Shown here: in pieces, positions 398 to 31,200 of the stretch
How positions within the stretch are numbered: the first letter of the stretch is position 1
Layout: every line of letters starts with the position of its first letter
NCBI GenBank assembly: GCA_038823825.1
Contig: JAWBCC010000002.1
Span: 90,001-122,000 of the forward strand
Direction: 5' to 3'
Length of the DNA: 32,000 bases
DNA from: Candidatus Hadarchaeales archaeon
GTDB lineage: Archaea > Hadarchaeota > Hadarchaeia > Hadarchaeales > Hadarchaeaceae
Translations under genes and position numbers: made by a program
Notes under the pieces: model-generated
Database searches by the model: none
What the model saw: only the letters and a program-made list of their open reading frames with translations
Told to the model about the DNA's origin: nothing

Positions 398-1295
398 AAT
401 CATTTTTGGCGACAGCAGATGCATGAAAGAGTTAGCGAATTGTTCAATTCATTTAGTGGTTACTTCGCCCCCTTATTTTAACGCACCTTTTGATTATCCT
501 GGCCTGTTCAGAGATTATAATGAGTTTTTAGACATGATACAAGGTGTTGCGAAAGAGCTCAAAAGAGTCATGGCTCCTGGTAGAATAGCTTGCTTCGTTA
601 CACAGGATGTTAGGATAGATGGAAAACTGTATCCGGTGCCAGCTGACATAACTCGAATAATGTGTGAAGAAGGATTCTTATATCGGGACAGAATTATTTG
701 GAAGAAACCAGAAGGATACATTCGTATAAGTCGAAGAAGCGGGGTCCTGATTCAACATCCTTACCCGATGTATTTTTATCCCGACAATATTTATGAGGAA
801 ATAATAATCCTTCAAAATGGAGAGTACGATTATTCAAAAGTGGAAAAAGAGAAATTGGTCGACTCTCGTATAAATCTTCAGGAATTTCAGAATGAAAAAT
901 GGTATCTTTCTGTCTGGGAAATAACCAATGTTCTTCCCTTGAAAAATAGGTTAGAAGAAGGAATAGCTGCATTCCCAGAGGAAATTCCGTATCGTCTCAT
1001 AAAGCTTTTTAGTTTTAAGGGAGAAAAGGTTTTGGATCCGTTTTTGGGATCTGGAACCACGATGAAAGTGGCACTAGAATTGGGCAGAAAGGCTGTGGGT
1101 TATGAAATAGATTTGGAACTTCTCGATGTTATTAAGAAAAAACTACGGATAGGACAGAAAAGATTGGTTGACAGCGAGCCGGTTGAAATAATCATAAGAG
1201 AAGATGCAAAACATTTGAGGAAAAAATTACAGAACAAAGTTAAAAACCAGCGATCCGTAGCCGATGCTTTAGAGGCAAATTCTAAAGCTTATTAA
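384..1295 (+). CDS. Beta-class amino DNA methyltransferase (N4-cytosine or N6-adenine; SPPY type)
   Basis: Motif IV (VVTSPPYF) is near the N-terminus. Motif I and its context (AAFPEEIPYRLIKLFSFKGEKVLDPFLGSGTT) is near the C-terminus. The order IV…I is the beta-class permutation of the N-4/N-6 methylase family. Confidence 0.9.
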   Translation: MTENKIIFGDSRCMKELANCSIHLVVTSPPYFNAPFDYPGLFRDYNEFLDMIQGVAKELKRVMAPGRIACFVTQDVRIDGKLYPVPADITRIMCEEGFLYRDRIIWKKPEGYIRISRRSGVLIQHPYPMYFYPDNIYEEIIILQNGEYDYSKVEKEKLVDSRINLQEFQNEKWYLSVWEITNVLPLKNRLEEGIAAFPEEIPYRLIKLFSFKGEKVLDPFLGSGTTMKVALELGRKAVGYEIDLELLDVIKKKLRIGQKRLVDSEPVEIIIREDAKHLRKKLQNKVKNQRSVADALEANSKAY

Positions 1296-2310
1296 GGTAG
1301 GGTTTAGTGGTTTCAATAGCGCCGAGTACATCCTCTGCCCAAACGCTAATCATCTGGTGCTTGGTCGTGTGATCACAGAAGCACAGTTTACCTCTAGCTT
1401 TTCCTTCGATTGTTTCTTTAAGAATTCCCTTAATCCTGATTGGAGTTTCTGAGCATAACTTGAACATCAATTGTTTTTCTTTTCCTTCAATTCTTGCAAT
1501 TCCTATTTTCATACCAGCTTTTATAGAGGGGTGATACTCGATTCTTAGTCGAAGTTTTTCAACGATATTTGGTGCTAGTCCGTTTTCTATAGCTTTATTT
1601 CTAAGATATATGGCGGAAAGATCAAAGCAACCAAGACATAAACTATATCCCACAACAGGAATACCCAAGCTTTTCCCCTTTATTGGTGAGGCATAATACG
1701 TTCTTTCTTTACCTCCTTGTTGATTTTCAGAAACTGGATAAAACTGTCTCTTCTCTTGGCAAATGCTCGTCAGTGCTTCAACGATTTTATTTAGTTCTTC
1801 GATGTTTATGTAAAACATGGCCCAGTTTCTCCATTTGGCAGGATCCATCACACGAATCGAGGTCCTCTCGAGATGATATCTCTGGATATCAAAGTAGAAA
1901 AAAATTCTTTTTTCCTCGTCAGCTCCAATCCTAACATAAACTTCTTCTTTCGGTAAACAGTACGCTTTTGCTCCTTTTTTGTCTTTATGAATTGCAGGTT
2001 TCCAACCCAACTCTTCGGGAGTTTTTCCATACCATTCGGGAGGAATCAGACGTTCGCTTGTTATTGGTTCAGGAGTTTTTAACCATCCCCTAAAATTTGA
2101 ATAAATTAATGGTATTGGCGTTTTTATCTTTCCTGATTTATCTGCGGGAACGTTAAACCCATGGGTGATTAGTTCTTCTTGTAATTCGAGAGAGCAAGGA
2201 AAGTAGATTTGTAAAGAATCTATCGGTAATTCCAAAATCCATTCAATCTTATTTGGGTCTTTCACAATTTTGGTTATTTTGTGAAGAATATAAATCTGTG
2301 AGCAAACCAT
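1282..2310 (-). CDS. Hypothetical 342-aa protein; candidate cognate restriction endonuclease (function unproven)
   Basis: Long ORF with ATG at 2310, convergent with the methyltransferase; the 3' ends overlap by 14 nt (1282-1295). No family motif recognised. A possible D…ExK arrangement (HKD…ADEEK) is too degenerate to rely on. The function is assigned only from its position next to an MTase. Confidence 0.6.
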   Translation of the reverse strand: MVCSQIYILHKITKIVKDPNKIEWILELPIDSLQIYFPCSLELQEELITHGFNVPADKSGKIKTPIPLIYSNFRGWLKTPEPITSERLIPPEWYGKTPEELGWKPAIHKDKKGAKAYCLPKEEVYVRIGADEEKRIFFYFDIQRYHLERTSIRVMDPAKWRNWAMFYINIEELNKIVEALTSICQEKRQFYPVSENQQGGKERTYYASPIKGKSLGIPVVGYSLCLGCFDLSAIYLRNKAIENGLAPNIVEKLRLRIEYHPSIKAGMKIGIARIEGKEKQLMFKLCSETPIRIKGILKETIEGKARGKLCFCDHTTKHQMISVWAEDVLGAIETTKPYLNKL

Positions 2311-5920: not shown

Positions 5921-5921
5921 A

Positions 5922-15098: not shown

Positions 15099-18000
15099 AC
15101 GCTCACCCTCACGTAGAACGTATTCGAATAGTTCCCGGGAGTCGTATCGCTTGGGATGACGAGGAACCAGTAGATGTTTCTTTGTACCCCCTCACCCCAT
15201 CCAACATTCGACCAGAGTGACTGCCAAGAGGTTGAGATACTCAGATCATAGGGCTCCTCTCCATTCTTGTCTGCCTTTGTATTGCTCAGTTGCAGGGTCC
15301 CTGGACCCGACCAATCTCCCGCGCCCTTTACGTCGATGTAGAAGTCTTTGTTTGATGTAACCGTTGCGACCGTGGGGTTCTCAGATGCTCCAACAGTCTG
15401 TCCTTGCTGGCCGCTGAATGTCAGGGAGGTGTCATCCAAGCTGAGTTCTATATAAACGCTTACCGTGAATTTGTCTGTAAATGTGTTTTCGCCTTCCAAA
15501 TTACCCGCGTCCACAGCCTTCGCCCACACGTTCCAGCTGACTGGCTCGGCAACCTTACCGAGCTTTACTCTGAATGTCCAGTTGTCTTCAGTTAAATCGT
15601 CATTCCCGGCGGAGCATCCGGCTACGATGAGGTGTGCGTTACCTGGACCCGGACCGACCTCCGTGAAACCTGTACCTCTAACCCACTTGAACGTGTAATG
15701 GTCGCGCACGCTATCGGAAGCATCCTTTGAGACGGATGAGCTGTAGAGGACAAGCCAAACTTCATTCACGTTGTTTAGCTTGTTTAAATCTCTGACAGTA
15801 ACTTTGACATCGAACGCCACGTCTGGGCTGACGTCGGTCGGTGTGAAGACGGCAAGAATTTCAGGTGCGACGTTCGGAATTGGCTGGTAAGCTATCAACC
15901 AGCTGCGGTCAAGCGAGTCCTCATACATCCGTCCGATTCCTGCATCTCTTTCCTCATGGTCTTCGTAGTAATCAATCTTACTTCCGTCTTTCAGGATGAA
16001 TCGGTACCACCAATTGTCTTCTTCCATCGGGGCCGGCAGGGTGACCTCCCACCAGTCGAAGCCATTCTCAGTGATGGCCTTCGTCATGTTGAAGATTACT
16101 TCTTGGGATGCTTTGGACTTCCAAACTCTGACCTGGGCGTTTTCGATGTCATTCTCCCAAGTTCGGATTCTAAGCCTGATCTGATCAGTTCCTGCGTTGC
16201 TTTCTCCAAAATTATCGCGTGGCGTGCCAACAGGATACTTATAGAACGAATTTCTCGAGTCGAAGAAAACGCCGTCCCACCAGATATCTCCATCGATTGA
16301 GGCCGTTGGTTTAGTTCTAAACCAGATTAGATAGTCGTTTCCTGTAGGCTCATCTGACATTGCACCCCATCCTCCCACTCTTGGCCAATCATCTTGGTAG
16401 TAGCCAATATCGTCCATATCCTGCAAGACAAATCTGAACCACCACTTGCTTTCAGAGTCAGGTCCACTGATCGTGGCTTTCCAATAATCATAGTTTTCAT
16501 CGGAGCTTTCCTTCTCCATATTCACGATTACCTCTTCACCAGTCCAAATTCTTATCTTTACATTCTCCACGTCGTTGCGGAACGTCCTTATTCTGATGGT
16601 AACAGACGACCCAAGCGGAAGCATGTTGCCTGTCACGTTCTCCGGGTAGGTGGTTATGGGTTCACCAACTGGTGAGAAATAGTATGAATCGTAGGAGTCG
16701 AAGAAGACGCCAGCCCACCAGATGTCGCCGTCGATTGTTGGCGGAATTGTATCAATTTCAAAGCTCCAGATATCGGACTCATTTTCTCCGGCTGCGTTTA
16801 TCGCTATAACCTTCCAGTAATAGACACCGTCCGGTAGTTCAGTTGTTGGCGTATAAGAGGTCGTGTTTGCAGGCAGGATGACGTCTATGGCTGGAGATCC
16901 AAAGTTCTGATCGTCGTCTACAAGCAACCTGTAGTTATCTTCGTTTTCACAATCCTGCCATGTGAATGTTGGTGTGTTGTCCGATGTCACCGATCCGTTT
17001 GCGGGTGACTGCAGAATTGGCTTTGTGGGCATGCGTGATTCAAAGGTCACAAAGTTCACTGTCGGATCTAGAGCGCCAAGGTGGTTGTACTTCCTCACGA
17101 AGAACCAATCGTAGTAATAGGATGAAGTTCCTCCACCATCCCAGACGCTGAGCTTGTACTTGTCAGCTCCTGTTGACCAATTCCCCTTTGTCCAATCTCT
17201 AACGTTTTCTATGAGCTCTCTGTACATGGAATCGTCTCTTCCACGGTAGAAGTTCACGTTCAGTTTGTCTGTACCATACATTATTATTTGTCCTATGTAA
17301 TACACATCGGCTTCCCGTGGAACATCTGCACCCCAAACTCCATCGGCAAAGAATCTTACCTTACTTCCATCCCAGAATATCATTGCAGTTTCTGAATCCC
17401 CCCATGTTCCGGTTATCCTGACTCCTCCTCTCCATGTCGATGCATTCTTTATTCTGAATTCGATTATCCTCTGCGTGTTTCTCTCCGTTGTTGGGATTCC
17501 TTGTTCGGGTCCGTGGTCAACATCTCTTCGAGCATCCCCATAATCTTCCAAACAAATCGTGGTTGCATAGACGTTAACACCCTCTGTGGAAAAGCCCCAC
17601 TTTGTCCAGTCTCCGTTGTCCCATCCCCCATCTCCCCCTCCGAAGTCTGTGAAGAATATGAACGTGTCTTCACCGCTTTCGGCACTCAAAGCCCCAGTGC
17701 ACCCATAATACATGTAGATAGCATTGTCTGCTGAGCTGAACTTTTTAACCCATGCCGTCGGAACCGCACTCATGTAGTTCGCCTCGTTCTTCTCGATCCA
17801 GAAAGGTAGGGGACCGCTCGTCTCATTCTCAAGGAATCTTATGCTTGGATACATGCTCTGCGGGATATCCGACGGAATTGGTATCCTTATCTGGAAGTTG
17901 TCCGGGAAGGGTCCGCTTATCTCAATCTTTCTTCTGTATGCGTACTGCGGTAGGAACCAGTTTGTTAAATAAGTTTCCTCAGGTCCGACACTTGTTGTTG

Positions 18001-19921
18001 GTTCTGTTGCTGCATATTTCCTTATGAAGAGCCAGTCAAACCAGTAAACCTTTTGTTGGTCCCAAACTTGAAGGTTCAGCTTGTCCACATAAGTGGTATC
18101 ACCACCTCCAGAGTAATACCAGTCTCCGGTTTTTTCAGGAGATACCCAGACCACTTCCCTGTAACTTCCGTTATCGCTTCCCCAGTAGAACGTAGTTCTT
18201 AATTTGTTTGTATCATACAGGTCAACTTTGGCTATATACCATCTTGAAGGAATTCCGGTGTATTCTGTTCCGTCAACCCAGAATCTAGGACCGTCGAATA
18301 TGCACGCTATCTCCTTCTCGAAGCCCGGCCCGGTTAGAACAAGACCCCCTCTGTAGCTTTCCTGATTCCACATCTTGAACTCAATAGTTGTAGGCATCTG
18401 TGCAAACCACATGCCTGGTTTGTTTTCTATCTTTCCTCCCCTTATCCTGATCTGGTATTCGCACCATGTTATGTCACGGGAAACGTTCGTATCTCCCTCG
18501 TTCCAGTTATAATTCCTCGGTCCGATATCTGTGAAGAATAGAAAAACGTTTTCTGCATTTTCAGCACTTGTCACCCATGGATTCCCATAGTACATCCAAA
18601 TCTCTGAGTCAGAGTTCTCAAGTCTTCTAACCCAAGCCACGTTTGTCTTTGTGCTTCCGTCGTTCTCAATCCAGTAAGGCAGAACTCCACCGTCTGCACT
18701 CTCAAGGAACCTTATGCTCGGATACATTCCCTTCGGGATGTCCGACGGGATGATGACCTTTATCTGGAAGTTCTCCTCATGGTTTCCGCTTATCGTGATT
18801 TTTCTTCTATACGGCCAGTTCTCATTCCACCAAGGCGCAACATCAAAAGATCTCACTGTCGAGTTTTCACCGTAGTTTCCATACGCATCTTGAGCTCCAA
18901 CCTTCCAGTACCATGTTCCGGTTGGGAGGGTTGGAGTCTGCCAGGAGGTTGAAGTTATCCAATCAGATGTGTACTCAACATTTGAGAAGGTTGGGTCACG
19001 CGTCAGATAAACTTTATATTTAACTGGACGGCTGTGATCGTCAACGGAGCTCCATGAAAGGGTCACAGGTGTCACATAGAACAATGCATTGTTCTCGGGG
19101 GAAACGAGCGAGGGTGCATCCGGAGGAGTAAGATCCATAACCCAATATCTCACCTTTCCAGCATCATCACCGCTCGAGATGAACTGAACTCTGATTTTTA
19201 TGTTCTCCGTCCTGTTCGCCGGGAACTCTACCTTTATGTTCTTCGGTGCTTCATCAAAGGCTCCTCTATAAGCGACTCCATAATGCGGCATCGGCTGAGG
19301 TGTTCCTTCAAATTCCCATCCCCAATGATAAACATACCAAGTGTTTCCCATCACTATCTTGAAGTTTTCAACCCTCGGTCCCGTAACTGTGTAAATCCCA
19401 CTCTCCCAGTTGTCATTCCATGGGTCTGAACCGAGGAGGGTCATATCTTCCCAGAGATCCCAGTTGTTGAATGTCCCCGGAACGTTGTAGGCGAGTCTCT
19501 TATAGACAGCACCGGCGGACCAAGGAGATCCTCCAAACCAGAATTGAAAAACGTAATCACCTGTGACTGGAACATCGCCACCTATGTTGCTTCCTGGAGT
19601 TTGGAGGGTTACACTTCGAGGATACCCATAGTTGGTGGATGCCTCTCCCCACCATTGATCCCACCAATCATCAACAAATATCTTAAATTCGATAGTGCCT
19701 GGTCCGCTTAACCCTCTCACTCTTTCCCAGACCTGACGTTCACTCCAACTATAAACGTATGACATCGGATCGGACAGATCCCAGCTGTTAAACGACCCAC
19801 GTACGTATGGCTGCGTTGGATTCGCTCCCACAGAAGAAATTAAAAGAGATACTGTAATCACTCCGGCAAGCGAAAGGAAAATAGCATATACTATCCAACG
19901 GGAAGTGTATCTTTCCTTCAC
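15095..19921 (-). CDS. Giant (1608 aa) secreted or membrane-anchored multi-domain surface protein: 2 GSFNxWD CBM-like, FN3-like, 2 DUF2341/LamG-like, FN3-like, 2 amylase-N/CBM34-like, Ig-like and C-terminal beta domains
   Basis: An uninterrupted 4.8-kb ORF with a GTG start at 19921, preceded by GGAG. An N-terminal hydrophobic segment (WIVYAIFLSLAGVITVSLLISSV). Domain calls are from motifs listed in the findings. No GH13 or other catalytic signature was seen. Confidence 0.85.
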   Translation of the reverse strand: MKERYTSRWIVYAIFLSLAGVITVSLLISSVGANPTQPYVRGSFNSWDLSDPMSYVYSWSERQVWERVRGLSGPGTIEFKIFVDDWWDQWWGEASTNYGYPRSVTLQTPGSNIGGDVPVTGDYVFQFWFGGSPWSAGAVYKRLAYNVPGTFNNWDLWEDMTLLGSDPWNDNWESGIYTVTGPRVENFKIVMGNTWYVYHWGWEFEGTPQPMPHYGVAYRGAFDEAPKNIKVEFPANRTENIKIRVQFISSGDDAGKVRYWVMDLTPPDAPSLVSPENNALFYVTPVTLSWSSVDDHSRPVKYKVYLTRDPTFSNVEYTSDWITSTSWQTPTLPTGTWYWKVGAQDAYGNYGENSTVRSFDVAPWWNENWPYRRKITISGNHEENFQIKVIIPSDIPKGMYPSIRFLESADGGVLPYWIENDGSTKTNVAWVRRLENSDSEIWMYYGNPWVTSAENAENVFLFFTDIGPRNYNWNEGDTNVSRDITWCEYQIRIRGGKIENKPGMWFAQMPTTIEFKMWNQESYRGGLVLTGPGFEKEIACIFDGPRFWVDGTEYTGIPSRWYIAKVDLYDTNKLRTTFYWGSDNGSYREVVWVSPEKTGDWYYSGGGDTTYVDKLNLQVWDQQKVYWFDWLFIRKYAATEPTTSVGPEETYLTNWFLPQYAYRRKIEISGPFPDNFQIRIPIPSDIPQSMYPSIRFLENETSGPLPFWIEKNEANYMSAVPTAWVKKFSSADNAIYMYYGCTGALSAESGEDTFIFFTDFGGGDGGWDNGDWTKWGFSTEGVNVYATTICLEDYGDARRDVDHGPEQGIPTTERNTQRIIEFRIKNASTWRGGVRITGTWGDSETAMIFWDGSKVRFFADGVWGADVPREADVYYIGQIIMYGTDKLNVNFYRGRDDSMYRELIENVRDWTKGNWSTGADKYKLSVWDGGGTSSYYYDWFFVRKYNHLGALDPTVNFVTFESRMPTKPILQSPANGSVTSDNTPTFTWQDCENEDNYRLLVDDDQNFGSPAIDVILPANTTSYTPTTELPDGVYYWKVIAINAAGENESDIWSFEIDTIPPTIDGDIWWAGVFFDSYDSYYFSPVGEPITTYPENVTGNMLPLGSSVTIRIRTFRNDVENVKIRIWTGEEVIVNMEKESSDENYDYWKATISGPDSESKWWFRFVLQDMDDIGYYQDDWPRVGGWGAMSDEPTGNDYLIWFRTKPTASIDGDIWWDGVFFDSRNSFYKYPVGTPRDNFGESNAGTDQIRLRIRTWENDIENAQVRVWKSKASQEVIFNMTKAITENGFDWWEVTLPAPMEEDNWWYRFILKDGSKIDYYEDHEERDAGIGRMYEDSLDRSWLIAYQPIPNVAPEILAVFTPTDVSPDVAFDVKVTVRDLNKLNNVNEVWLVLYSSSVSKDASDSVRDHYTFKWVRGTGFTEVGPGPGNAHLIVAGCSAGNDDLTEDNWTFRVKLGKVAEPVSWNVWAKAVDAGNLEGENTFTDKFTVSVYIELSLDDTSLTFSGQQGQTVGASENPTVATVTSNKDFYIDVKGAGDWSGPGTLQLSNTKADKNGEEPYDLSISTSWQSLWSNVGWGEGVQRNIYWFLVIPSDTTPGNYSNTFYVRVSV
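15887..16744 (-). repeat. Tandem duplication of a ~140-aa module inside the giant gene (amylase N-terminal/CBM34-like)
   Basis: Copy 1 (aa ~1060-1200): IDGDIWWAGVFFDS…TIRIRTFRNDVENVKIRIW…NMEK…YDYWKATI…WWFRFVLQD…YYQDDW. Copy 2 (aa ~1208-1345): IDGDIWWDGVFFDS…IRLRIRTWENDIENAQVRVW…NMTK…FDWWEVTL…WWYRFILKD…YYEDHE. Confidence 0.75.
17084..18826 (-). repeat. Tandem duplication of a ~280-290-aa DUF2341 plus LamG/jelly-roll-like module inside the giant gene
   Basis: Copy 1 (aa ~366-640): WPYRRKITISGNHEENFQIKVIIPSDIPKGMYPSIRFLESADGGVLPYWIEN…IWMYYGNP…NVFLFFTDIG…WFDWLFIRKY. Copy 2 (aa ~655-946): YAYRRKIEISGPFPDNFQIRIPIPSDIPQSMYPSIRFLENETSGPLPFWIEK…IYMYYGCT…DTFIFFTDFG…YYDWFFVRKY. Confidence 0.75.
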
Positions 19922-21699: not shown

Positions 21700-23862
21700 A
21701 TGGAAATCCAAGACGTCTGTAAAAAGTACAACCTTCCCGAGAAAATAGTGGAAATCCTCGGAGCAGCTGGGATAAGAAAACTCTTCCCACCACAGAAGGA
21801 GGCGATAGAAGCGGGAGTCCTTGATGGAAAAAGTCTGGTTCTCTCGGTTCCGACTGCAGCCGGGAAGACCCTCGTCGCCGAACTCTGCATGCTCAAGTCA
21901 ATCCTGAAGGAAAAGGGAAAGTGCCTCTACGTCGTTCCCCTCCGCGCACTCGCAAGCGAAAAATATGAAGAGTTTAAGCAGAGGTATGAGCAGCTCGGAA
22001 TACGCGTCGGGATAAGCACTGGAGATTTTGACACGGCTGACCCAAAGCTCGCGATGTATGACATCCTCGTCGCCACTTCAGAGAAGGTTGATTCTCTACT
22101 TAGGCACAGGGCGAAGTGGCTTGCCGACATCGTTACCGTCGTAGTTCTTGACGAGATACATCTCCTAAACGACCCGGAACGCGGCCCGACCTTGGAGATC
22201 TTGGCCACGAGACTCAGGCAGGTTAATCCTAGGCTCCAGATCCTAGCCCTCAGCGCCACGATAAGAAACTCGGACGAAATTGCCGAGTGGATTGGAGCGG
22301 AGCTCGTCTTGAGCGACTGGAGACCGGTCCCGCTTAAAAAAGGAGTTTATCTCGACGGCGAAATAATCTTCGAGGACGGAGAAAGAAGAAAGATAAAGGT
22401 TCAAGGTAGCGATTTGGAGACCCTCTCACATGATGTTCTTCAAGAAAAGGGACAGTTGCTCATCTTCGTGAACACTAGAAAATCTTCACAGACGGTCGCC
22501 GAGATTTTATCCCCAATTTCCCGTCTTTATCTCTCCCAGGAAGAAAAGCAGAAATTACGCGAGATAGCCAAGGAGATCGAAGGGGCTCTCGGGGAAACGA
22601 CGAAAACCTGCCGTCTTCTCGCTTCTTGCGTCAGGGATGGGTCCGCCTTTCATCATGCCGGTCTCCACCACCTCCAGCGCAGGGCTGTGGAGAGAGGTTT
22701 CAAATCAAATTTGATAAAAATCATTTGCGCGACACCAACTTTGGCGGCAGGAGTCAACCTCCCAGCCAGAAGGGTCATCGTCCGAGACTATCGAAGATAT
22801 GTGGAACCTTATGGTTTAGTCCCGATTCCTGTGATGGAATTCCACCAGTTCTGCGGGAGAGCCGGAAGACCACAGTACGACAAATTCGGTGAAGCCATCC
22901 TTATAACTCACTCCGAAGCTGAAGCCGAAGTCCTCTTGGAAGATTTCATAAAAGCTCCGCCGGAAAGGGTAACCTCAAAACTGGCTACAGAACCAGCCCT
23001 CCGCACTCATGTTCTAGCTTCCATCGCGGCAGGCTACGCAACGAACTGGGATTCGATGAGGGATTTTATGCGCAAAACTTTCTTCGCCTTTCAGTTTGGG
23101 GTGGAGAGAGTAGAATCCGTTGTTGAAAGAGTGTTAGACTTTCTCGAGAAAAACGAGCTGATAACGGTGAGAGGAGACGTACTCACTCCAACTCCCTTCG
23201 GAGAACTTACATCCGCTCTTTACATAGACCCGCTCTCAGCAGTCATAATCCGCGATGGTCTCAAACTTGTCTCGACAACCCCACCTTCCGATGTTGCTTT
23301 GCTTCATCTTATTTCGAGCACCCCCGACATGCCCCCTCTCTATCTCGGTGAGAAGGACTATGAGTGGCTCGAGCTGGAATACTCCTCCCACAGATCGGAA
23401 TTTCTGGTTCCGGTTGAGGAGGAAGATCCCATCCTCTTCGAGCAGTTCCTCGCCAGTCTAAAAACGGCTCTGATGCTCAAGGCTTGGGTTGAAGAAGAAA
23501 GGGAAGATGACATTCATGAAAAGTTTGGTGTTGGAGCAGGAGACATAAGGAGAATGGCGGAGACGGCCGAGTGGCTCCTTTACTCCTCCCATCAGATCGC
23601 CAAACTCTTTAAAGTGAAGCCAGCTCTAAACCCCCTTCGCAAACTCACCGAGAGAATAAGGTATGGTGTGAAAGAAGAACTCCTTGAACTCGTCCAGCTT
23701 GAGGGAATAGGAAGGGTCAGAGCGAGAAGCCTTTTCAGTGGAGGTTTCAAAACTTTGAAAGACATAGCGAAGGCTTCGGAAGCGGAATTGGCTAGTCTCC
23801 CCTACATAGGCAAGGAAATCGCAAGAAGCATAAAACGTCAGGTCGAGACACTCACTTCTTGA
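21700..23862 (+). CDS. hel308: Ski2-like DNA helicase Hel308 (Hjm)
   Basis: LFPPQKEAI, Walker A PTAAGKT, DEIH, SAT, FHHAGL, ATPTLAAGVNLPARRVI and GRAGRPQYD motifs. The C-terminal winged-helix, ratchet and HhH region (IDPLSA…GVKEELLELVQLEGIGRVRARSL) matches the Hel308 architecture. Confidence 0.92.
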   Translation: MEIQDVCKKYNLPEKIVEILGAAGIRKLFPPQKEAIEAGVLDGKSLVLSVPTAAGKTLVAELCMLKSILKEKGKCLYVVPLRALASEKYEEFKQRYEQLGIRVGISTGDFDTADPKLAMYDILVATSEKVDSLLRHRAKWLADIVTVVVLDEIHLLNDPERGPTLEILATRLRQVNPRLQILALSATIRNSDEIAEWIGAELVLSDWRPVPLKKGVYLDGEIIFEDGERRKIKVQGSDLETLSHDVLQEKGQLLIFVNTRKSSQTVAEILSPISRLYLSQEEKQKLREIAKEIEGALGETTKTCRLLASCVRDGSAFHHAGLHHLQRRAVERGFKSNLIKIICATPTLAAGVNLPARRVIVRDYRRYVEPYGLVPIPVMEFHQFCGRAGRPQYDKFGEAILITHSEAEAEVLLEDFIKAPPERVTSKLATEPALRTHVLASIAAGYATNWDSMRDFMRKTFFAFQFGVERVESVVERVLDFLEKNELITVRGDVLTPTPFGELTSALYIDPLSAVIIRDGLKLVSTTPPSDVALLHLISSTPDMPPLYLGEKDYEWLELEYSSHRSEFLVPVEEEDPILFEQFLASLKTALMLKAWVEEEREDDIHEKFGVGAGDIRRMAETAEWLLYSSHQIAKLFKVKPALNPLRKLTERIRYGVKEELLELVQLEGIGRVRARSLFSGGFKTLKDIAKASEAELASLPYIGKEIARSIKRQVETLTS

Positions 23863-24352
23863 TCTTCATTCGATTTATCAGGTTCTTCAGGAATTTTCTC
23901 CACTCCTCTTCGACATCCGGTGGTATGGGTCCTTTTCCGATCCCACCCTCATCGAGGTAGTAAATTTTTCCGTCTTTTTCCCCGAAATTGGACAGCTTCA
24001 TGTCTAGGACGAACCCAGCTCTCGCCGCTCTCTCAACGAGTTGTGCGATTCTTGTGATGGACACCCGCGTAATTTTGACTGGCTCCACATACTCGTGAAA
24101 CGAGACAACAACCATTTTCAAGCTGTTTCCAGACCTCAAACCCGTAACAACCGCTCCGTAAAACTCCGGCAGAAAATCGAGCTTTTTCCTTAGCTCCAGA
24201 TTTTTTTCAACGATTTTCCTGGCCAGCTCTTTTGCATCACCTTCACAGCTGTGAATTTTTAGAACGTAGTCTCCAACTCTGAGGACTGACCGGTAAAGTC
24301 CACGTCCCACTTCTTTTTCATCTCCGCGCAGGCATATCAGCTGGGAAGCCAT
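23852..24352 (-). CDS. Minimal protein-kinase-like protein (166 aa; Bud32/RIO-sized, ePK-type catalytic motifs)
   Basis: From the ATG at 24352: Gly-rich loop VGRGLYRSV (aa 15-23), VLK (K32), acidic helix ELARKIVEK, hinge-like FHEYVEP, catalytic loop LDMKLSNF (D117-x-K-x-x-N122), DEG (D134) 17 residues later. It is on the same strand as rad50 and starts 35 nt inside the rad50 3' end. The track start at 24430 is an upstream extension. Confidence 0.6.
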   Translation of the reverse strand: MASQLICLRGDEKEVGRGLYRSVLRVGDYVLKIHSCEGDAKELARKIVEKNLELRKKLDFLPEFYGAVVTGLRSGNSLKMVVVSFHEYVEPVKITRVSITRIAQLVERAARAGFVLDMKLSNFGEKDGKIYYLDEGGIGKGPIPPDVEEEWRKFLKNLINRMKIKK

Positions 24353-26723
24353 AATGCTCAACCGAAACCTGTTCACAGACGGTCGGTCCGTCTCTTTCTT
24401 TATCTCTTGAAAACCTGTAGAGAGTCCCACTCACCGCCGCTTCGAACATGGGATCATGCGTTATCAGTATTATCTGCCTGACGATTCCGGGCAATCTCTC
24501 CCTCATAACTCTAGCGAGCTCCTGCACGGATCTTTCGTCAAGGTTGTGTGTAGGTTCATCGAAGACAATCCACTTGAGATTCGGGGCAAAGAGAATGGCT
24601 AAGGCAACTCTAAGCGCCAGACATGCGACAGTTCTCTCACCGCCACTTGCAACCCCATCGACGTTTATCCACTCCCCTCCCCTTCTTCTCAACTGCAAAA
24701 CGTAGTCGTTCTCCTCTGAAAGCAACCTGATCCCAGTGTAATCTCCATATGGGTAGAGATCCGCCCACAGGCTGTTCATTATCTCGTTCACCTCGTTCAA
24801 AAATTCCTGCCTCATCTCCGTTTGTACCCTCATCACAACCTGCTGTAGAGCTTTCAAGGCACCGGATAGAGCCAGCCTCACCTCAGCCTCCTTCTCCCAC
24901 TCTTTGATTGTTTTCCTTTTCTCTTCGATTTCTTGGATTTCCCTCTGCAGTCGATCGATCTCTTTCTCTGCATTTTTCACATCCTGCTGAACTCCACCCA
25001 AGCATTGATGGAGATCTCTGCTTTTTTCCTCAAGCTCGGAAAGCTTTTTCTCATCAAACTCTAGCTTTAACTTCGTCAGCTGCTCTTCAAGTGCTTTAGA
25101 TCGATTTACGTATTCTTCGATCAGCTTCTCTAGCTCTTTCATATCTCTTCTAGTTTTCAACACTTCTAGGATTCTGTTGATTTCTTTCTCGATGTTTTTC
25201 TTTTCGTTTTCAAGCATCTGAATTTCTTCTTCGATTGACGACAGTTCCCTTTCTATATTCGGAATTTCCACCTGAATTTCAGAGAGCTTTTCCCTCATCT
25301 CAGCAAGCTCTTTTTCTTTCAATTCCAGATCTGCGGTTTCACGTCTGAGAATCTCCTCCTCGTTTGCCTCCCGTCGTAGCTCACGAAGTTTCCCAGAAAT
25401 TTCAGTCTCCTCATTCTCTAGCAGAGCGATCTTTCTTTTCACCTCTTCCATGTCTGCTCTCTTTTTGTCGATGAGGGAAACTTTCCTTTCTTCTGGTAGC
25501 GGATTATCGCAAACCGGACATGTACTTTCGGCTCGCCCAAGCTCGGCAATGGCATTAGAAAGCTCCACTTCTAGGTTTTTGAGTCGGCCGATTTCACCCC
25601 CAACACGTTTGAGTTCATTCTCCAGTCTTTCTATCTCTTCCTTCAGTTTTTTTGCAGCGAGTTCCTCAAGCTTTTTTCTCTTCTCACGTTTGACGACCAG
25701 TTCTTTCTCAAGTCTCTGAATACCGGCCGTCAGACTTCTACCGTCAGCCAGCAACTCGCTTTTTTTCTGGATGAGTTTTTCTTTTGTTTTGTTCTTTTCC
25801 TCGATGAATCCGCTAGTAGTTTTGAACTTACTTTCGAGTTCATCCTTTTTTGAAATCAAAAAATCTTCTGAAACATGAGCCATCTCTCCAAGTGTTTTTC
25901 TAGAATTTTCAAGCTGGTTTTTTGCCTGTTCTATTTTTCCCTCGATCTGCCAACGCTCCGTTTTTATTTCCGAGATTTTCTTCTCAATTTCCTTCAAGCG
26001 TTGTTGTTCTTTATCAATCTCGTCCAGCTCTTGCGAAATCTTTGCAAGCTCGCGCTTTTTCAGTTCATACTGCTGCTTTATTTCTTCCAAGTTTCTTTTG
26101 AATTCCTCAAGCTTTTGAAGCCGCTCATCTTTTTTGAGTGTCTCAGCTTTCTTCTTTGATTCTTCTCCTAAAATTTCAAGCTCTCTTGCCAGAGATCCAA
26201 AACCCTTTCTAACCTCCTCAAATTTCGAAAGTCCCAGAAGTTCATCTATTTTTCTTTTCCTGTCTCCAGCCCGCAGCTCCAGAATATAATCGAGCCTATT
26301 TTGTTCTGAGTAAACAGCTCTTTCATAAACATCCCTAGTTATCTTCAGAATCTCGCAAACTTTTTCTGTGACCCTTTCAGTACTCCCGCTTATCACCGTG
26401 CTCCCATCGGCTTTCCTGAGCTCGGCCCATGTCGTCCCTTTCCCTCGCATGATCGTCCTTTTGACCGAGTACTCAACACCATCTGGAGAGATGAATCCGA
26501 CCTCGACCTCTCCTCTTTGCTCATTCTTCCTTATCAGATCCTCCAGTTTCACTTTCTTACTTTCAACATCCGAAATCATCCCAAAGAGCGCAAACTCCAC
26601 AGCCGTAAGAACTGATGTTTTCCCGCTGCCGTTTGGTCCAACCAGAACGTTTGTCCCCTCCTGAAATCTGAGGTGGGTGTCTGCATGCGATCGCCAGTTC
26701 TTTATTTTGACCTCGAAGATCAT
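24318..26723 (-). CDS. rad50: DNA double-strand break repair ATPase Rad50
   Basis: Walker A GPNGSGKTS. Long E/K-rich coiled coil with a central zinc hook (STCPVCDNPL). Signature SGGERTVACLALRVAL, Walker B/D-loop IVFDEPTHNLD, H-loop ILITHD. ATGA overlap with mre11. Confidence 0.93.
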   Translation of the reverse strand: MIFEVKIKNWRSHADTHLRFQEGTNVLVGPNGSGKTSVLTAVEFALFGMISDVESKKVKLEDLIRKNEQRGEVEVGFISPDGVEYSVKRTIMRGKGTTWAELRKADGSTVISGSTERVTEKVCEILKITRDVYERAVYSEQNRLDYILELRAGDRKRKIDELLGLSKFEEVRKGFGSLARELEILGEESKKKAETLKKDERLQKLEEFKRNLEEIKQQYELKKRELAKISQELDEIDKEQQRLKEIEKKISEIKTERWQIEGKIEQAKNQLENSRKTLGEMAHVSEDFLISKKDELESKFKTTSGFIEEKNKTKEKLIQKKSELLADGRSLTAGIQRLEKELVVKREKRKKLEELAAKKLKEEIERLENELKRVGGEIGRLKNLEVELSNAIAELGRAESTCPVCDNPLPEERKVSLIDKKRADMEEVKRKIALLENEETEISGKLRELRREANEEEILRRETADLELKEKELAEMREKLSEIQVEIPNIERELSSIEEEIQMLENEKKNIEKEINRILEVLKTRRDMKELEKLIEEYVNRSKALEEQLTKLKLEFDEKKLSELEEKSRDLHQCLGGVQQDVKNAEKEIDRLQREIQEIEEKRKTIKEWEKEAEVRLALSGALKALQQVVMRVQTEMRQEFLNEVNEIMNSLWADLYPYGDYTGIRLLSEENDYVLQLRRRGGEWINVDGVASGGERTVACLALRVALAILFAPNLKWIVFDEPTHNLDERSVQELARVMRERLPGIVRQIILITHDPMFEAAVSGTLYRFSRDKERDGPTVCEQVSVEHYGFPADMPARR

Positions 26724-28000
26724 CCGGAACCACCACGAACGAGCTCAGAAACGAGTTCATCCACCATTTTTTTGGCTTCTTCCTCTTTTTTCGCAGCGAG
26801 CAACTCAAATAGTCCTCTCATGTCTAGCATCTGAGCGGCCGGAATATCTTTAGCATATTCCAAAAGTAGGAGTATTCCCCTTTCCTCGATGGGAACACCT
26901 TTCTCTCTCATGCTCCTCAGCGCAGCAATTCTCTCCTCCAGACCCTTTGCGGTCAGTCTGTCGTGGGATATCTCTAGGATTGCTTCTTTGCCAAATTCTT
27001 CAACTAGAATGGATGGATCAAAATCTATTTTCGCCACACCATTTGCCAGCGTTCCCTCCAATCTCAGTTTTATTATCGGAATCTTCTCCGTGTTCTTCCG
27101 TGCTCTTTGTAGCAACTCCTTTACCTTATTCCTGCACGTGGTGTAGATTTGTTCAAGTGTAGCATCTCTAAATACCAATCTTTCGTAAAAGAAATCTCTT
27201 GGAGACCTTAGCTCGACGAACCTGCGCTGCACGATTTTCCCATCGATGTCAAGTATATAGAATCCCTTTGGGTTGCCGGCTTCTATGTCCGAAAGCTGCG
27301 TCCTCTCTGTGCTTCCCGGAATAAGCAAAAGTCTGTTATGGACAGTAGCCTCAGCCCGATAATGAACGTGTCCATCTAGATAGAGGTCAAAACCTGTAGG
27401 CAGGTCAGAGAACTGAATGCTTGGTTTTTCCTCAGAGGAAAAAGTGAAGCTCCCTATCGACTGATGTAACAGGAGAACGTTAAATGAGTTCTCCACCGGT
27501 TTTGGATTCCAAGCCTTTATCGTCGGCAAAAGATCTCTTTCTGGAACATAGCTCAGCCCGTGTAGTGAAATTCTTTCCCCATTTTTTTCAAAAGTCACAG
27601 AATTCGCATTAAGCAATATGAGTTTTCCCGCAGCCTCGAGCGCCTCAACGGGATTTTTTTCACCTCTTGCTCTTCTTTCGTGGTTTCCAAAAATCGCCAC
27701 GAGCGGAATACCACGCAAAGCTAGCGGAGAGATAGAATCTTCCGGTTTATCAATTGTCTCCACGAGTTTTATCCCACTATTTTCGGCGAGCTGGGGAGAG
27801 GTTAGAATTCGAAGAGCTCTAGCCCAGCTCTCCAAGCTTGGCTTACTTCTATCGAAGATATCTCCCAAAACCAGAATAAGATCAGCTCCGGATGTGATGG
27901 CTTTTCTAAGAGCCTCCTCTGCCTGGTCGAAGGAATCTTGTTCACGAGTAGTTCCAGATTTCACTCCGAAATGAAAATCAGACATTACAGCGATTCTCAT
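26720..28000 (-). CDS. mre11: DNA double-strand break repair nuclease Mre11
   Basis: Calcineurin-like phosphoesterase motifs DFHFG, GDIFD, GNHE, LLLHQ and GHVH. The ATG at 28000 (MRIAVMSDFHFG) is preferred over the GTG at 28015. Confidence 0.92.
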   Translation of the reverse strand: MRIAVMSDFHFGVKSGTTREQDSFDQAEEALRKAITSGADLILVLGDIFDRSKPSLESWARALRILTSPQLAENSGIKLVETIDKPEDSISPLALRGIPLVAIFGNHERRARGEKNPVEALEAAGKLILLNANSVTFEKNGERISLHGLSYVPERDLLPTIKAWNPKPVENSFNVLLLHQSIGSFTFSSEEKPSIQFSDLPTGFDLYLDGHVHYRAEATVHNRLLLIPGSTERTQLSDIEAGNPKGFYILDIDGKIVQRRFVELRSPRDFFYERLVFRDATLEQIYTTCRNKVKELLQRARKNTEKIPIIKLRLEGTLANGVAKIDFDPSILVEEFGKEAILEISHDRLTAKGLEERIAALRSMREKGVPIEERGILLLLEYAKDIPAAQMLDMRGLFELLAAKKEEEAKKMVDELVSELVRGGSG

Positions 28001-28078
28001 CAGAGTAAAATTCACGCGAAGTGCTTTAATTTTTGCTTACGTGCCGGATTAAAACCCAAAAAGGAGAAATTAACATTG

Positions 28079-29308
28079 ATGACGGAAATTTGGGTTGATA
28101 AACATTCTCCAAAAAGCTTGGCTGAGGTCGTGGGGCAGGCAGCCGCGATCGAGAAGATGAAAGCCTGGGCTAGAGAGTGGAAAAAGAAAACCCCAGCGAA
28201 GAAAGCCTTGCTTCTTTACGGACCACCGGGAACTGGAAAGACGATATCCGCAATTCTGCTTGCAAAAGAAATGGGGTGGGAGTATGTGGAGATGAATGCA
28301 AGCGACGAGCGGACGCTTTCCGCGGTTAGGAGAATTGCCGGAGAAGCCTCTAGGGCCGGGACTCTGTTTGAAGGAGCGGCTGGCAGAAGACTCCTGATAA
28401 TCGACGAAGCAGATAATATTCACGGAACTGCAGATCGCGGCGGTTACGCTGCTCTTAGAGAAATTCTCAACGAGACGAGAAACCCAATAATTCTCATCGC
28501 TAACGATCTTTATGCGGTGCCGGCAGATATCCGTGCGCTCTGTCTACCTATCGTTTTCCGGAGGATTCAGAAACCACTCATAGTCAAAAGACTAGCAACG
28601 ATAGCCCAGAGAGAGAAAATAAGGGCAGATCAGGAAGCTCTTGAAATGATTGCGAACATATCGGAAGGAGATATGCGCTCAGCCATTCACGATCTTCAGG
28701 TCGCAGCTTTTGGAAAGAAAACTCTCACGAAGGATGACGTGATAATTGCAAGGAGAAACCGTGAAAAAACGATTTTCGATGCTCTGAGCGCTATTCTCGG
28801 AAGTAAGAGTGCGAAAATCGCCAGAACCGCTTTGTGGGACGCAGATCTTTCACCGGACGAAGCATTTGCTTGGATCGTTGAAAACGTTCCAAAGGTTGTA
28901 AAGGATCCTGAGTCGCTTGTAAAAGTTTATGAAGTTCTTTCGAAGGCGGACAAATTTTTTGGTTATTCTAGGAGTTCGTACAAATTCTGGAGTTTTGCGT
29001 CAGATATGATGACTGCCGGTGTGGCGGTTAGTAAAGGAGAAGAGCTTCAATTCTCAAAATTCCAGCCGTCTTCGTGGATAAGGAAGATGGCACAAACAAT
29101 GAAAACAAGAAACATTCGCAATTCCGTTGCCAAAAAGCTTGCGCGCAAATGTCATACCTCCTCCAGAGTTGTGAAAAAGGATTTTCTGCCTTATCTACCT
29201 ATAATGCTTGGCGGCAAACCGGAGCGTTTACAACATTTGGCTAGAGAACTGGAGTTGAACGAAGAAGAAATAGAATTTCTCAAGTCGCTAAGGGCAGGGA
29301 AGTCATGA
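28079..29308 (+). CDS. rfcL: Replication factor C large subunit
   Basis: WVDKHSPKSLAEVVGQ…ALLLYGPPGTGKT…EMNASDER…LIIDEADNI…GDMRSAIHDLQ are the AAA+ clamp-loader boxes of archaeal RFC-L. The ATG at 28079 is preceded by AAGGAG. The track start at 27938 overlaps mre11. Confidence 0.9.
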   Translation: MTEIWVDKHSPKSLAEVVGQAAAIEKMKAWAREWKKKTPAKKALLLYGPPGTGKTISAILLAKEMGWEYVEMNASDERTLSAVRRIAGEASRAGTLFEGAAGRRLLIIDEADNIHGTADRGGYAALREILNETRNPIILIANDLYAVPADIRALCLPIVFRRIQKPLIVKRLATIAQREKIRADQEALEMIANISEGDMRSAIHDLQVAAFGKKTLTKDDVIIARRNREKTIFDALSAILGSKSAKIARTALWDADLSPDEAFAWIVENVPKVVKDPESLVKVYEVLSKADKFFGYSRSSYKFWSFASDMMTAGVAVSKGEELQFSKFQPSSWIRKMAQTMKTRNIRNSVAKKLARKCHTSSRVVKKDFLPYLPIMLGGKPERLQHLARELELNEEEIEFLKSLRAGKS

Positions 29309-30375
29309 AAATTTCCAAAAAATTACAGTTTGGCAAGTTTGTTACGCCCATACCAGATAAGCAAAGACCCGTTTATCGTTGGTTTCAGCTGAAGGAGTCA
29401 TTCTCGAGCCATCTCGTTCTTACGCTTTTAGATCTCTGGAAGCCAGACCGGAACTCGCTAGTTTTAGATCCTTTCTGTGGAGCTGGTACGACATTGCTCG
29501 CCTGCAAGGAGGCAGGATTGTCCAGCATAGGTTTTGACGTTCATCCTCTTTTTTTGTTCGCGTCTCGCGTGAAAACGTCCGATTATGATTTGGCGAGGCT
29601 TCACCAACTAATGAATGAAATAATCGCGGTTGAGGTAGAGCCCGGCGAAATCGCTCCAGAATGGGTTAGAAAATTCTTTCCGCCAAAAATCCCTGAACTG
29701 ATCTTAAGTTTAAAGGAAAAAATTTTGAAGCTTGAAGAAAGGGAGAGAAATTTCTTTCTGCTTGCTCTTATGAAGGCAGCTCTTCATTGCAGTTGGGCGG
29801 AAGTAGACGGTGCAGTTCTCAAGGTTAGAAAGAGAAAGGTGAAGCCACTCTTAACAATTTTTAAAGAGGTAACCGAAGGGATGCTCGAGGATTTAAGGAA
29901 TCTTCCCACAAAACCAGCGAAAGTAAGGATAGAGAGGTGTGATGCCAGGAGGATGAATCTTCCCGACGAGAGCATTGATATAACCATAACGTCTCCGCCA
30001 TACTTATTCAAGGGTGAGTACATAAGAGCATACAAGATCGAGGAGTGGATTTTGGATGTCCAAACAAATATAGAAAGTTTCTTTGGTGGTTGGGCTGACG
30101 ATTCAAGTCCAGAAGAGTATTTCTCAGATATGGCGAGATTCATGGAGGAACTTTTCAGAGTTTCTCGTTCTGCAGCCAAAGTCTGTTTGGTGATCTCCGA
30201 CGGTTGTTCGAAGAGGGGTGTTGTGAAAGTGATCGAAAAGGTTTCAGAAATTGCCAAGGATGTTGGCTTCTCCGTGAAGAAGGCGATACTCGTCAATGAA
30301 AGATGGTGCACGACGCCATCGAGGCGGAAGCTCGGCAAAGCAGGGGAATATCTACTCATGCTGGAGAAAAAATAA
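29305..30375 (+). CDS. Orphan SAM-dependent amino methyltransferase (N4-C/N6-A type) with permuted motif order (I before IV)
   Basis: Motif I context YRWFQLKESFSSHLV…VLDPFCGAGTT at aa ~24-63. Motif IV context CDARRMNLPDESIDITITSPPY at aa ~212-233. ATGA overlap with the rfcL stop. No nuclease-like neighbour. Confidence 0.8.
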   Translation: MKISKKLQFGKFVTPIPDKQRPVYRWFQLKESFSSHLVLTLLDLWKPDRNSLVLDPFCGAGTTLLACKEAGLSSIGFDVHPLFLFASRVKTSDYDLARLHQLMNEIIAVEVEPGEIAPEWVRKFFPPKIPELILSLKEKILKLEERERNFFLLALMKAALHCSWAEVDGAVLKVRKRKVKPLLTIFKEVTEGMLEDLRNLPTKPAKVRIERCDARRMNLPDESIDITITSPPYLFKGEYIRAYKIEEWILDVQTNIESFFGGWADDSSPEEYFSDMARFMEELFRVSRSAAKVCLVISDGCSKRGVVKVIEKVSEIAKDVGFSVKKAILVNERWCTTPSRRKLGKAGEYLLMLEKK

Positions 30376-30411: not shown

Positions 30412-31200
30412 ATGTCCAACTTCGTGTACATTCTTGGTCCGGCCGGCTGTGGAAAATCTACCCTAACAGCCGTGTTATACGAGACTATGAGAGCCGCAGG
30501 TCTGGAAGTTTTGTCCGTTAACTTAGACCCTGGAGCCGAGTGGCTTCCATATACGCCCGAGATAGACATAAGAAAGGATATCTCACTTCGCGAGGTAATG
30601 AGGGAGTTCAGGCTCGGACCGAATGGTGCTCTCGTAGTCTCTGTAGATCTCATCGTCGACCATATTCCAAAAATTAGAGAGATTATCTCAAAATGGAACC
30701 CCGACTACGTGTTGGTGGACACTCCGGGACAAATGGAGCTATTCGCGTTCAGGGATACCGGTCCAATGGTCGTGCGTGCCTTTACCGAGAAAGGTACTCC
30801 TCTAATTCTCTTTCTAATCGATGCATTTCTGGCCCGCAGCCCGAGCTCTTTCATATCGATGTTAATGCTTTCGACATCGGTTCTAAGCCGTTTCAGGGTA
30901 GCACAGCTGAACGTTCTGACAAAGGCAGATTTGCTCGACGAAAAAACCGTGGAGGAGATATCAGACTGGGTGAACAGAAAAGATGCTCTTTTAGAAAAGC
31001 TCGAAAGTGAGGAAAATCCACTGAACAGAGAGAACACAAAAATGATATTGGAGGCTGTAGAGAAGATGGGCCTAGCAGGAGAGCTGCTTCCGATTTCCGC
31101 AACTGAGAATAAAGGAATTGTTGAACTCGTGAGCTTGATCGAGAGAAGTTTTGCGGCAGAAACACGTCTGGACGTTCAAGAGGAGGTGGAAAAGTTTTGA
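30412..31200 (+). CDS. GPN-loop GTPase (paralogue B)
   Basis: G1 GPAGCGKST, NLDPG, GPN loop (RLGPNGAL), DTPGQME, and G4 variant TKAD; 262 aa. Confidence 0.88.
   Translation: MSNFVYILGPAGCGKSTLTAVLYETMRAAGLEVLSVNLDPGAEWLPYTPEIDIRKDISLREVMREFRLGPNGALVVSVDLIVDHIPKIREIISKWNPDYVLVDTPGQMELFAFRDTGPMVVRAFTEKGTPLILFLIDAFLARSPSSFISMLMLSTSVLSRFRVAQLNVLTKADLLDEKTVEEISDWVNRKDALLEKLESEENPLNRENTKMILEAVEKMGLAGELLPISATENKGIVELVSLIERSFAAETRLDVQEEVEKF

Follow-up and report, generated by a model that had tools for sequence, protein, structure and literature searches.

The archaeal tRNA U47 2′-kinase ArkI (AQ578, COG2112) is a 216-aa protein of the eukaryotic protein kinase (ePK) superfamily that lacks subdomains VIII and X (PMC9095486). 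It was once listed as a "hypothetical Ser/Thr kinase", and its operon with a tRNA enzyme pointed to the real substrate, tRNA; it has an HGQ catalytic triplet, a DFE metal loop and an ArkI-specific helix (PMC9095486). Across the superfamily of proteins that are protein kinase-like (PKL), the key residues in the numbering of PKA are G52, K72, E91, P104, H158, H164, D166, N171, D184 and D220, and in Ser/Thr ePKs, D166 and N171 are joined by a conserved [LI]-K-P-x (Kannan et al. 2007, PMC1821047). Here we describe a 166-aa open reading frame (ORF) that lies directly after mre11 and rad50 in a stretch of 32,000 nt from a Candidatus Hadarchaeales archaeon, hereafter the window. Its best overall explanation, to which we give a probability of roughly 0.6, is that it encodes a minimal kinase and forms the third gene, X, of an mre11-rad50-X operon in Hadarchaeota. 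The gene is the following:

23852..24352, minus strand, stop codon included: kinase-like 166-aa ORF, a minimal eukaryotic protein kinase-like (ELK)-type protein, defined from the ORF list, homologues, the ratio of nonsynonymous to synonymous substitution rates (dN/dS), AlphaFold2 and Foldseek

We inspected the ORF list and the sequence of the window for ORF geometry. The ORF starts with the ATG at 24352, which matches the N-terminus of the family, where C7 is conserved; the ORF list also offers an alternative GTG start at 24430 that would give 192 aa. A search of 5.8 billion proteins returned 14 homologues (E 1e-101 to 2e-32, 42–99% identity), all of whose sources, like those of the ORF itself, annotate the protein as hypothetical or leave it unnamed. 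From 1.84 billion cluster representatives, an exhaustive search by profile recovered only 29, and the family is therefore small. Against the 84%-identical orthologue at locus L036, the Nei-Gojobori dN/dS was 0.082, or 0.078 with the overlaps excluded, which is the same level as in the adjacent rad50 tail (0.077). The 166-aa ORF is a gene that is conserved and subject to purifying selection. It extends into two other genes, and no source annotates it beyond "hypothetical", as would be so for an ORF arisen by chance at the rad50/hel308 junction. Such a spurious origin is ruled out by the dN/dS of 0.08, which holds in the ORF's own frame outside the overlaps, and by homologues at 23–84% identity across several archaeal phyla, where the gene mostly stands alone; the confident fold prediction described below argues in the same direction, and we regard a chance ORF as next to impossible.

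Residue conservation was counted over 30 diverse family sequences, down to 23% identity. Six columns are invariant, K32, D117, N122, F123, G124 and D134 (30/30), and the conserved elements are arranged along the protein in the order of a kinase domain, as listed from the N-terminus:

24284..24307, minus strand: Gly-rich loop G16-R-G18-L-Y-R-S-V23 between predicted β1 and β2 (G18 is G in 23/30, V23 is V in 24/30)
24257..24259, minus strand: K32, equivalent of the β3 "VAIK" Lys (30/30; VRK2 alignment)
24182..24235, minus strand: predicted αC-like helix, residues 40–57 (both AlphaFold2 models)
24080..24100, minus strand: hinge-like FHEYVEP (85–91) at the end of β5 (E87 26/30, P91 24/30; strand 77–87)
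23981..24007, minus strand: catalytic loop L116-D117-M-K119-L-S-N122-F-G124 (D117, N122, F123 and G124 30/30; VRK2 alignment)
23942..23953, minus strand: metal-binding motif D134-E-G-G in the DFG position (D134 30/30, E135 25/30; aligned on the VRK2 "DYG")
23915..23944, minus strand: family-specific loop G137-I-G-K-G-P-I-P-P-D146 (G137 29/30, G139 28/30, P144 29/30, D146 29/30)
23858..23920, minus strand: C-terminal amphipathic basic helix 145–165, the sole helix past the DFG-like motif (both AlphaFold2 models)

The Gly-rich loop is flanked by strands 13–17 and 21–26 in both models, and position 18 is S or A in the remaining 7/30 sequences. In the catalytic loop, the family consensus is LD-[MLI]-K-P-S-N-F-G, of which the protein in the window shows D-M-K-L-S-N; a Lys or Arg occupies position 119 in 30/30, and P120 is found in 18/30, so that the family consensus carries the Ser/Thr signature [LI]-K-P-x between the catalytic Asp and Asn. 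D134 follows D117 by 17 residues (18 in PKA). The αC-like helix is followed by F60-L-P62, and the loop G137–D146 may take the place of the activation segment in much shortened form. The correspondence with the key residues of PKA is as follows:

K72: K32, 30/30
D166: D117, 30/30
N171: N122, 30/30
D184: D134, 30/30
G52: G18, 23/30
E91: E53, E or D in 20/30
P104: presumably P62, 29/30
D220 (the αF Asp): possibly D146, 29/30
H158 and H164: no equivalent

Since K32, D117, N122 and D134 are each found in 30/30 sequences and fall into register in the alignment with VRK2, the family has the four catalytic residues of the PKL superfamily. The original prediction had been made from the letters of the window, and its motifs all lie where it had placed them: VGRGLYRSV (15–23), K32, FHEYVEP (85–91), LDMKLSNF (116–123) and D134-E-G, the last 17 residues after D117 and 32 residues before the end of the protein. 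Its acidic helix stood only in part. A helix is indeed predicted at 40–57, but the candidate partner of K32, E53, is acidic (E or D) in only 20/30 members.

To assess the fold, we used AlphaFold2 with 15- and 30-sequence alignments. The two models have a mean predicted local distance difference test score (pLDDT) of 85.6 and 89.5, a predicted TM-score (pTM) of 0.75 and 0.80, and an identical topology: three strands within residues 13–35, a long helix (40–57), a β-hairpin (64–87), a helix (99–111), short strands at ~114–140 and a single terminal helix (145–165), the last at a lower pLDDT of 55–77 and in a tail of net charge +4. Foldseek searches of the PDB with the two models gave 31 and 41 matches at E ≤ 1e-3, and the top 50 are all kinase-fold proteins, nearly all of them protein kinases. 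The matches to ePKs have a Foldseek probability of 1.00 and TMq 0.5–0.57. The best match is PKR (EIF2AK2; E 2e-5 to 4e-5, TMq 0.55–0.57), and further matches include TNIK, AAK1/GAK, PknG, PknB, GCN2, CaMKII, the archaeal RNA kinase TkArkI and WbdD. The models thus show the bilobal PKL/ELK fold, with a five-stranded N-lobe and αC, a hinge, αE and the catalytic and Mg-binding loops. The APE-ended activation segment and αF–αI (subdomains VIII–XI) are absent, as the protein stops 32 residues after D134. We predict that the 166-aa protein is a minimal ELK-type kinase fold composed of an N-lobe and a truncated C-lobe, and in this respect the fold prediction bears out the original one, as do the homologues and the dN/dS of 0.08 for conservation under selection.

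Sequence comparison by itself gave only faint signals. One member each matched two kinase-clan models below threshold, YrbL (P0015, E 0.0019) and APH (E 0.009). The broader of two family profiles aligned with VRK2 in the PDB at a non-significant E of 0.09, over the whole length and in the correct register from the β3 Lys to DYG, with K32 on the Lys of "VVKV", D117-K119-N122 on "GDIKAANL" and D134 on the Asp of "DYG". When the family profile was compared with a sequence of the PKA catalytic domain by hhalign, 22 columns aligned at a non-significant probability of 1.2%, again in the right register, with the catalytic loop on the PKA "RDLKPENL".

Several of our results weigh against a kinase. Pfam and NCBIfam gave nothing above threshold for the ORF, whether read as 166 or as 192 aa, or for 28 family members; Pkinase (PF00069/PK_Tyr_Ser-Thr) had no match in the window protein or any of the 28 members even at E ≤ 10; and the PDB sequence search with the two family profiles returned no significant match. 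Since no kinase family is matched significantly by sequence, the assignment rests on predicted structure and motifs. The Foldseek TM-scores are moderate (0.5–0.57), at a root-mean-square deviation of 4–7 Å, and the HRD His/Arg and an equivalent of H158 are absent from the alignment of 30 sequences. Together with the acidic αC residue in only 20/30 and the extreme truncation, with no αF–αI scaffold predicted past one helix, the missing HRD His/Arg would suit a pseudokinase or nucleotide-binding adaptor, in which the kinase fold binds ATP or a partner without phosphotransfer. However, the β3 Lys, the catalytic Asp, the Asn and the DFG Asp are the residues that pseudokinases usually lose, and all four are invariant here down to 23% identity, which makes an inactive protein improbable. 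We are highly confident that this is a real gene whose product has a kinase-like fold and a competent active site.

The second part of our reading concerns the place of the gene. In the window, its neighbours are:

24318..26723, minus strand: rad50, 801 aa, operon gene upstream of the kinase-like ORF (Pfam AAA_23, SMC_N, Rad50_zn_hook, SbcC_Walker_B)
26720..28015, minus strand: mre11, 431 aa as listed, operon gene 1 (Pfam Metallophos)
24318..24352, minus strand: 35-nt overlap of the rad50 3′ end and the kinase-like ORF 5′ end (ORF list)
21700..23862, plus strand: hel308-type helicase, convergent with the kinase-like ORF, a variable neighbour (Pfam Helicase_dom4_arc, DEAD, HHH_5)

The geometry proved to be as originally described, with the start ATG 35 nt inside the rad50 3′ end on the same strand, a 4-nt overlap (ATGA) between mre11 and rad50, and an 11-nt overlap between the 3′ ends of hel308 and the kinase-like ORF. 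The 35-nt overlap is consistent with translational coupling. The 12 Rad50 residues encoded in it (EHYGFPADMPARR) are poorly conserved and differ in L036, and the overlap therefore costs Rad50 little. It recurs in the two closest relatives, at −35 nt in L036 and −38 nt in L006.

We next determined how widely this arrangement is kept. A pattern scan in which each GTDB species was represented by one genome yielded 23 loci, 18 from Hadarchaeota (Hadesarchaea) and five from metagenome-assembled genomes labelled Nezhaarchaeota, Methanomethylicota or Nitrososphaerota. Measured between the rad50 stop and the start codon of the kinase-like gene, the spacing at the 18 distinct genome loci of Hadarchaeota was as follows:

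−38 to +18 nt: 12/18 loci
about +37 and +65 nt: L003 and L019
265 nt: L023
1.8 kb: L020
2.6 kb: L018
7.1 kb: L022
L017: short contig, rad50 not on it

In most of the Hadarchaeota sampled, the kinase-like gene thus comes after mre11-rad50 in the same orientation, either overlapping rad50 or leaving a very short gap, and in 14/18 loci no more than 65 nt separate it from the rad50 stop. The window and L036, both at −35 nt, also belong to the tight class; beyond L036 and L006, most other Hadarchaeota lie between −14 and +18 nt. Across most of the 12 tight loci, the kinase-like protein is only 38–49% identical to that of the window. The downstream neighbour varies: the window, L006 and L036 have hel308 in this place, most other loci adenylosuccinate lyase (ADSL), and mre11-rad50-X is therefore a conserved co-directional unit. 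These data suggest that the kinase-like gene is likely to belong to the mre11-rad50 operon in Hadarchaeota.

The rad50 gene itself shows two peculiarities in this set. At L003:3995-7963, directly upstream of the kinase-like gene, the rad50 orthologue has 1322 aa and contains an intein (Intein_splicing and a LAGLIDADG_3 homing endonuclease). At L004:5586-8008, the rad50 call consists of two ORFs (524 and 259 aa), for which gene splitting, a frameshift or a faulty assembly could be responsible; here too, the end of rad50 and the kinase-like gene have 8 nt in common.

The close junction is not universal, and this counts against an operon with a shared function. Four Hadarchaeota loci (L018, L020, L022 and L023) break the adjacency to rad50. 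ORFs without an apparent relation to repair sit between rad50 and the kinase-like gene in L018, L020 and L022; the insert in L020 consists of two opposite-strand ORFs with no Pfam match, and in L022, the kinase-like gene is directly preceded by an ORF of 1963 aa (2017-7908) that contains CBM96 and Ig-like domains. In L018 (2062-2841) and L017 (230-1018), the gene directly upstream on the same strand encodes an S49 (SppA-like) peptidase. Moreover, none of the loci recovered outside Hadarchaeota shows linkage to mre11-rad50. The linkage originally proposed thus holds for most Hadarchaeota loci and is confined to this phylum; the Archaeoglobi, which had been proposed for a survey, were the wrong target, as every close relative is from Hadarchaeota, and for the same reason we reject an origin of the window in the Archaeoglobi.

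These exceptions feed the main rival to our reading. The protein might be a general-purpose small regulatory kinase or ATP-binding switch whose position after rad50 is gene order inherited within Hadarchaeota, perhaps co-transcribed but without a functional tie. The block RFC-L/mre11/rad50/X/(ADSL)/hel308/elp3, where RFC-L is the large subunit of replication factor C (RFC), is syntenic across the phylum, and inherited order is therefore a sufficient explanation. The gene contexts outside Hadarchaeota agree with such a role. In the five Nezhaarchaeota-type loci (L024–L028), the kinase-like gene stands by itself, flanked by a BtpA gene that is divergent and a HAD hydrolase gene that is convergent; in Nanohalobium, genes for an amidase (PF01425) and GatB_N are found downstream of it; and other members adjoin Lon_C, AIM24, ribonucleotide reductase or triose-phosphate isomerase genes. 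In addition, an N-terminal receiver-like domain of ~120 residues is fused to the kinase-like part in three representatives and one further cluster member (P0026, P0027, P0029 and P0044; Response_reg E 6e-10 in one of them), and these fusions in other lineages point to a generic signalling module. On the other hand, overlaps or gaps of at most 18 nt are kept in 12/18 Hadarchaeota loci despite the 38–49% protein identity in most of them, and the rad50-X junction stays while the downstream neighbour changes. We consider inherited order without a functional tie a serious alternative, though one with clearly less than an even chance.

Two further observations concern the loci outside Hadarchaeota. 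The L024–L028 block comprises genes for an M42 peptidase, BtpA, the kinase-like protein, a HAD hydrolase, ThiF, phosphopantothenate synthetase and MptE, a cofactor-biosynthesis neighbourhood; its neighbouring genes are 55–85% identical between genomes, and the shared block is probably plain synteny of close relatives. The receiver fusions are found at L031, L037:7001-7816 and L038:4685-5500, and in L037 and L038 they are convergent with a ribonucleotide reductase gene.

What the minimal kinase of the mre11-rad50-X operon might do can be outlined from its residues and its position. All ATP-binding, Mg-binding and catalytic residues are invariant, and it is therefore most likely that the protein binds ATP-Mg and transfers the γ-phosphate to a hydroxyl group. 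ATP-Mg would be bound via K32, N122 and D134, and D117 would act as the catalytic base. The GIGKGPIPPD loop and the basic terminal helix or tail would replace the missing substrate-binding C-lobe. As the third cistron in Hadarchaeota, the gene is probably co-transcribed with mre11 and rad50 and, because of the overlaps, we infer that its translation is often coupled to that of Rad50. The overlaps within the operon make a target in the Mre11-Rad50 pathway the most economical guess: the kinase-like protein might act on the machinery or on what it handles, that is, on a subunit or, as the protein is very basic, on a nucleic-acid end. A role in this pathway is tentative and has clearly less than an even chance, as the link consists of gene order in one phylum.

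The nature of the substrate brings in a further explanation, in which the protein would be a nucleic-acid or small-molecule kinase, acting on a DNA or RNA end or a nucleotide in the manner of ArkI; this would fit a repair-linked role as well as an unrelated one. Hadarchaeal members have an isoelectric point (pI) of 9.2–10.4, and the C-termini of P0010 (L004:8001-8693) and P0043 are ~80-residue tails of KPKxPK(I/L)K repeats with a net charge of +24. Judged from composition, the basic members and tails suggest nucleic-acid binding, although a high pI is common among small archaeal proteins. TkArkI (7vnx) is among the Foldseek matches (E 8e-4 to 9e-4, TMq 0.50–0.51), as is WbdD, which is also not a protein kinase; yet ArkI comes no closer in the fold search than many protein kinases. 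ArkI itself belongs to the ePK superfamily without subdomains VIII and X (PMC9095486), and the 166-aa protein, which ends 32 residues after D134, also lacks the C-lobe elements with which protein kinases bind their substrates. By contrast, D-[MLI]-K-P-S-N matches the signature of Ser/Thr protein kinases and not that of small-molecule kinase families, and the family keeps the catalytic Asp where ArkI has HGQ and DFE for HRD and DFG. As a full account of the family, a nucleic-acid or small-molecule kinase is on balance rather unlikely; given the very basic hadarchaeal members and the precedent of the ArkI operon, a nucleic-acid substrate is nevertheless a live alternative to a protein substrate.

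In the strongest form of the functional link, the Hadarchaeota protein would be a genuine third subunit of Mre11-Rad50 or a regulator dedicated to it, kept stoichiometric by translational coupling and phosphorylating Rad50, Mre11 or a DNA end to switch end-processing. We consider this doubtful and distinctly less probable than a looser role in the pathway, and the original wording of a "dedicated third component" goes too far; the linkage is confined to one phylum and broken in several Hadarchaeota. If this reading were true, archaea would have their own counterpart of double-strand-break sensing coupled to a kinase, independent in mechanism and based on the smallest kinase fold with catalytic competence seen so far.

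The remainder of the window was surveyed for other genes. Neither HerA nor NurA, both reported missing by the original prediction, has a Pfam match in any substantial ORF of the window, and no HerA or NurA domain occurs among the called genes of L001, L003 and L004. A 342-aa ORF (1282..2310, minus strand), presumably of about NurA's length and checked as a NurA candidate, had no Pfam match even at E ≤ 1; it is convergent with a methyltransferase-family gene (384-1295, plus strand), which is one of two N6/N4 DNA methyltransferase-family genes in the window, the other lying at 29305-30375 on the plus strand. The RFC large-subunit gene (27938-29308, plus strand) is divergent from mre11, here and in most Hadarchaeota loci whose contig reaches upstream of mre11. 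Its listed TTG start at 27938 would give a 78-nt overlap with the mre11 5′ end; translation more probably begins at residue 48, the internal Met of "MTEIWVDKH", and a short promoter region shared with mre11 would then remain. Two paralogous ORFs match PF03029 (ATP_bind_1, a conserved hypothetical ATP-binding protein), at 12648-13397 (minus strand) and 30412-31200 (plus strand), the latter after the DNA methylase-like gene that lies downstream of RFC-L; the same order of RFC large subunit, methyltransferase and ATP_bind_1 was also found in L001. Finally, two adjacent large ORFs of 551 and 1608 aa (13443-15098 and 15095-19921, minus strand), with a 4-nt overlap, contain Ig-like, DUF2341, DUF4962 and alpha-amylase-N-like domains, and judging by these the pair may be a cell-surface or S-layer-type module.

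To our knowledge, the kinase–substrate wiring around archaeal Mre11-Rad50 is largely unknown. Phosphorylation of archaeal homologous-recombination proteins has been reported (PMC6555300), and the kinase-like protein is a concrete, small and easily expressed candidate. If the prediction holds, it defines an unclassified family in which the kinase fold is pared to ~165 residues with every catalytic residue in place, which would be useful for understanding the minimal kinase core, and it would be the first candidate for a kinase whose gene lies within an mre11-rad50 operon of archaea. A literature search for kinases in archaeal mre11-rad50 operons, Hadarchaeota Rad50 and new archaeal kinase-like families found no description of it, in line with what the original prediction had supposed. 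A caveat is that the link to mre11-rad50 is limited to one phylum, which is uncultured, and could be a matter of position only.

We conclude by comparing the kinase-like family with the known systems. With the Ser/Thr ePKs (PKR/EIF2AK2, TNIK, AAK1/GAK, PknG, PknB), it shares the predicted N-lobe topology, the β3 Lys, D-x-K-P-x-N and the Mg-binding Asn and Asp. Unlike them, it has no Pkinase Pfam match, no HRD His/Arg and no αG–αI (GHI) subdomain; their APE-containing activation segment is replaced by a 12-residue loop, and the whole protein has 166 aa, compared to ~250–300 aa for an ePK kinase domain. Bud32/PRPK and RIO are likewise small archaeal kinase-fold proteins without the ePK substrate-binding subdomains, so that the original comparison with them is apt for the architecture. 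It does not extend to membership, as there is no match to the RIO1 (PF01163) or Bud32 models in Pfam and NCBIfam; the kinase-like protein is shorter still and is unlinked to Kae1/KEOPS or ribosome genes. The catalytic loops of RIO and Bud32 are also not known to have a Lys two residues past the Asp, whereas this Lys is conserved in the kinase-like family. YrbL (PF10707, PhoP-regulated, ~190–210 aa), which we take to belong to the Pfam protein-kinase clan, is another small kinase-like protein, but it is bacterial and has no context in common with the family, of which only 1/28 members, P0015, matches it, below threshold and over the N-lobe only (E 0.0019, 18.3 bits vs a cutoff of 31.5).

ArkI resembles the kinase-like protein as a small ePK-superfamily protein of thermophilic archaea and as a fold-level match at E ~8e-4. 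It is larger (216 vs 166 aa) and stands in another gene context, and the NCBIfam and PDB sequence searches found no sequence-level relation between the two. The HGQ and DFE motifs of ArkI/AQ578 are not present in the kinase-like family, which has V/I-L-D117 and D134-E-x-G. The likeness to MRN-Tel1/ATM drawn by the original prediction, a kinase associated with Mre11-Rad50, is conceptual only. ATM is a ~3000-aa PIKK recruited via Nbs1; the kinase-like family has nothing homologous to ATM or Nbs1, and its association with Mre11-Rad50 is gene order in one archaeal phylum. The protein is predicted to operate as the core of an ePK or ELK Ser/Thr kinase does. By profiles and defining motifs, the family does not group with Pkinase, RIO, Bud32, ArkI or YrbL. 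In conclusion, set against these systems the family is new and unusually minimal within the kinase-like superfamily, and its association with the mre11-rad50 operon is specific to one lineage.

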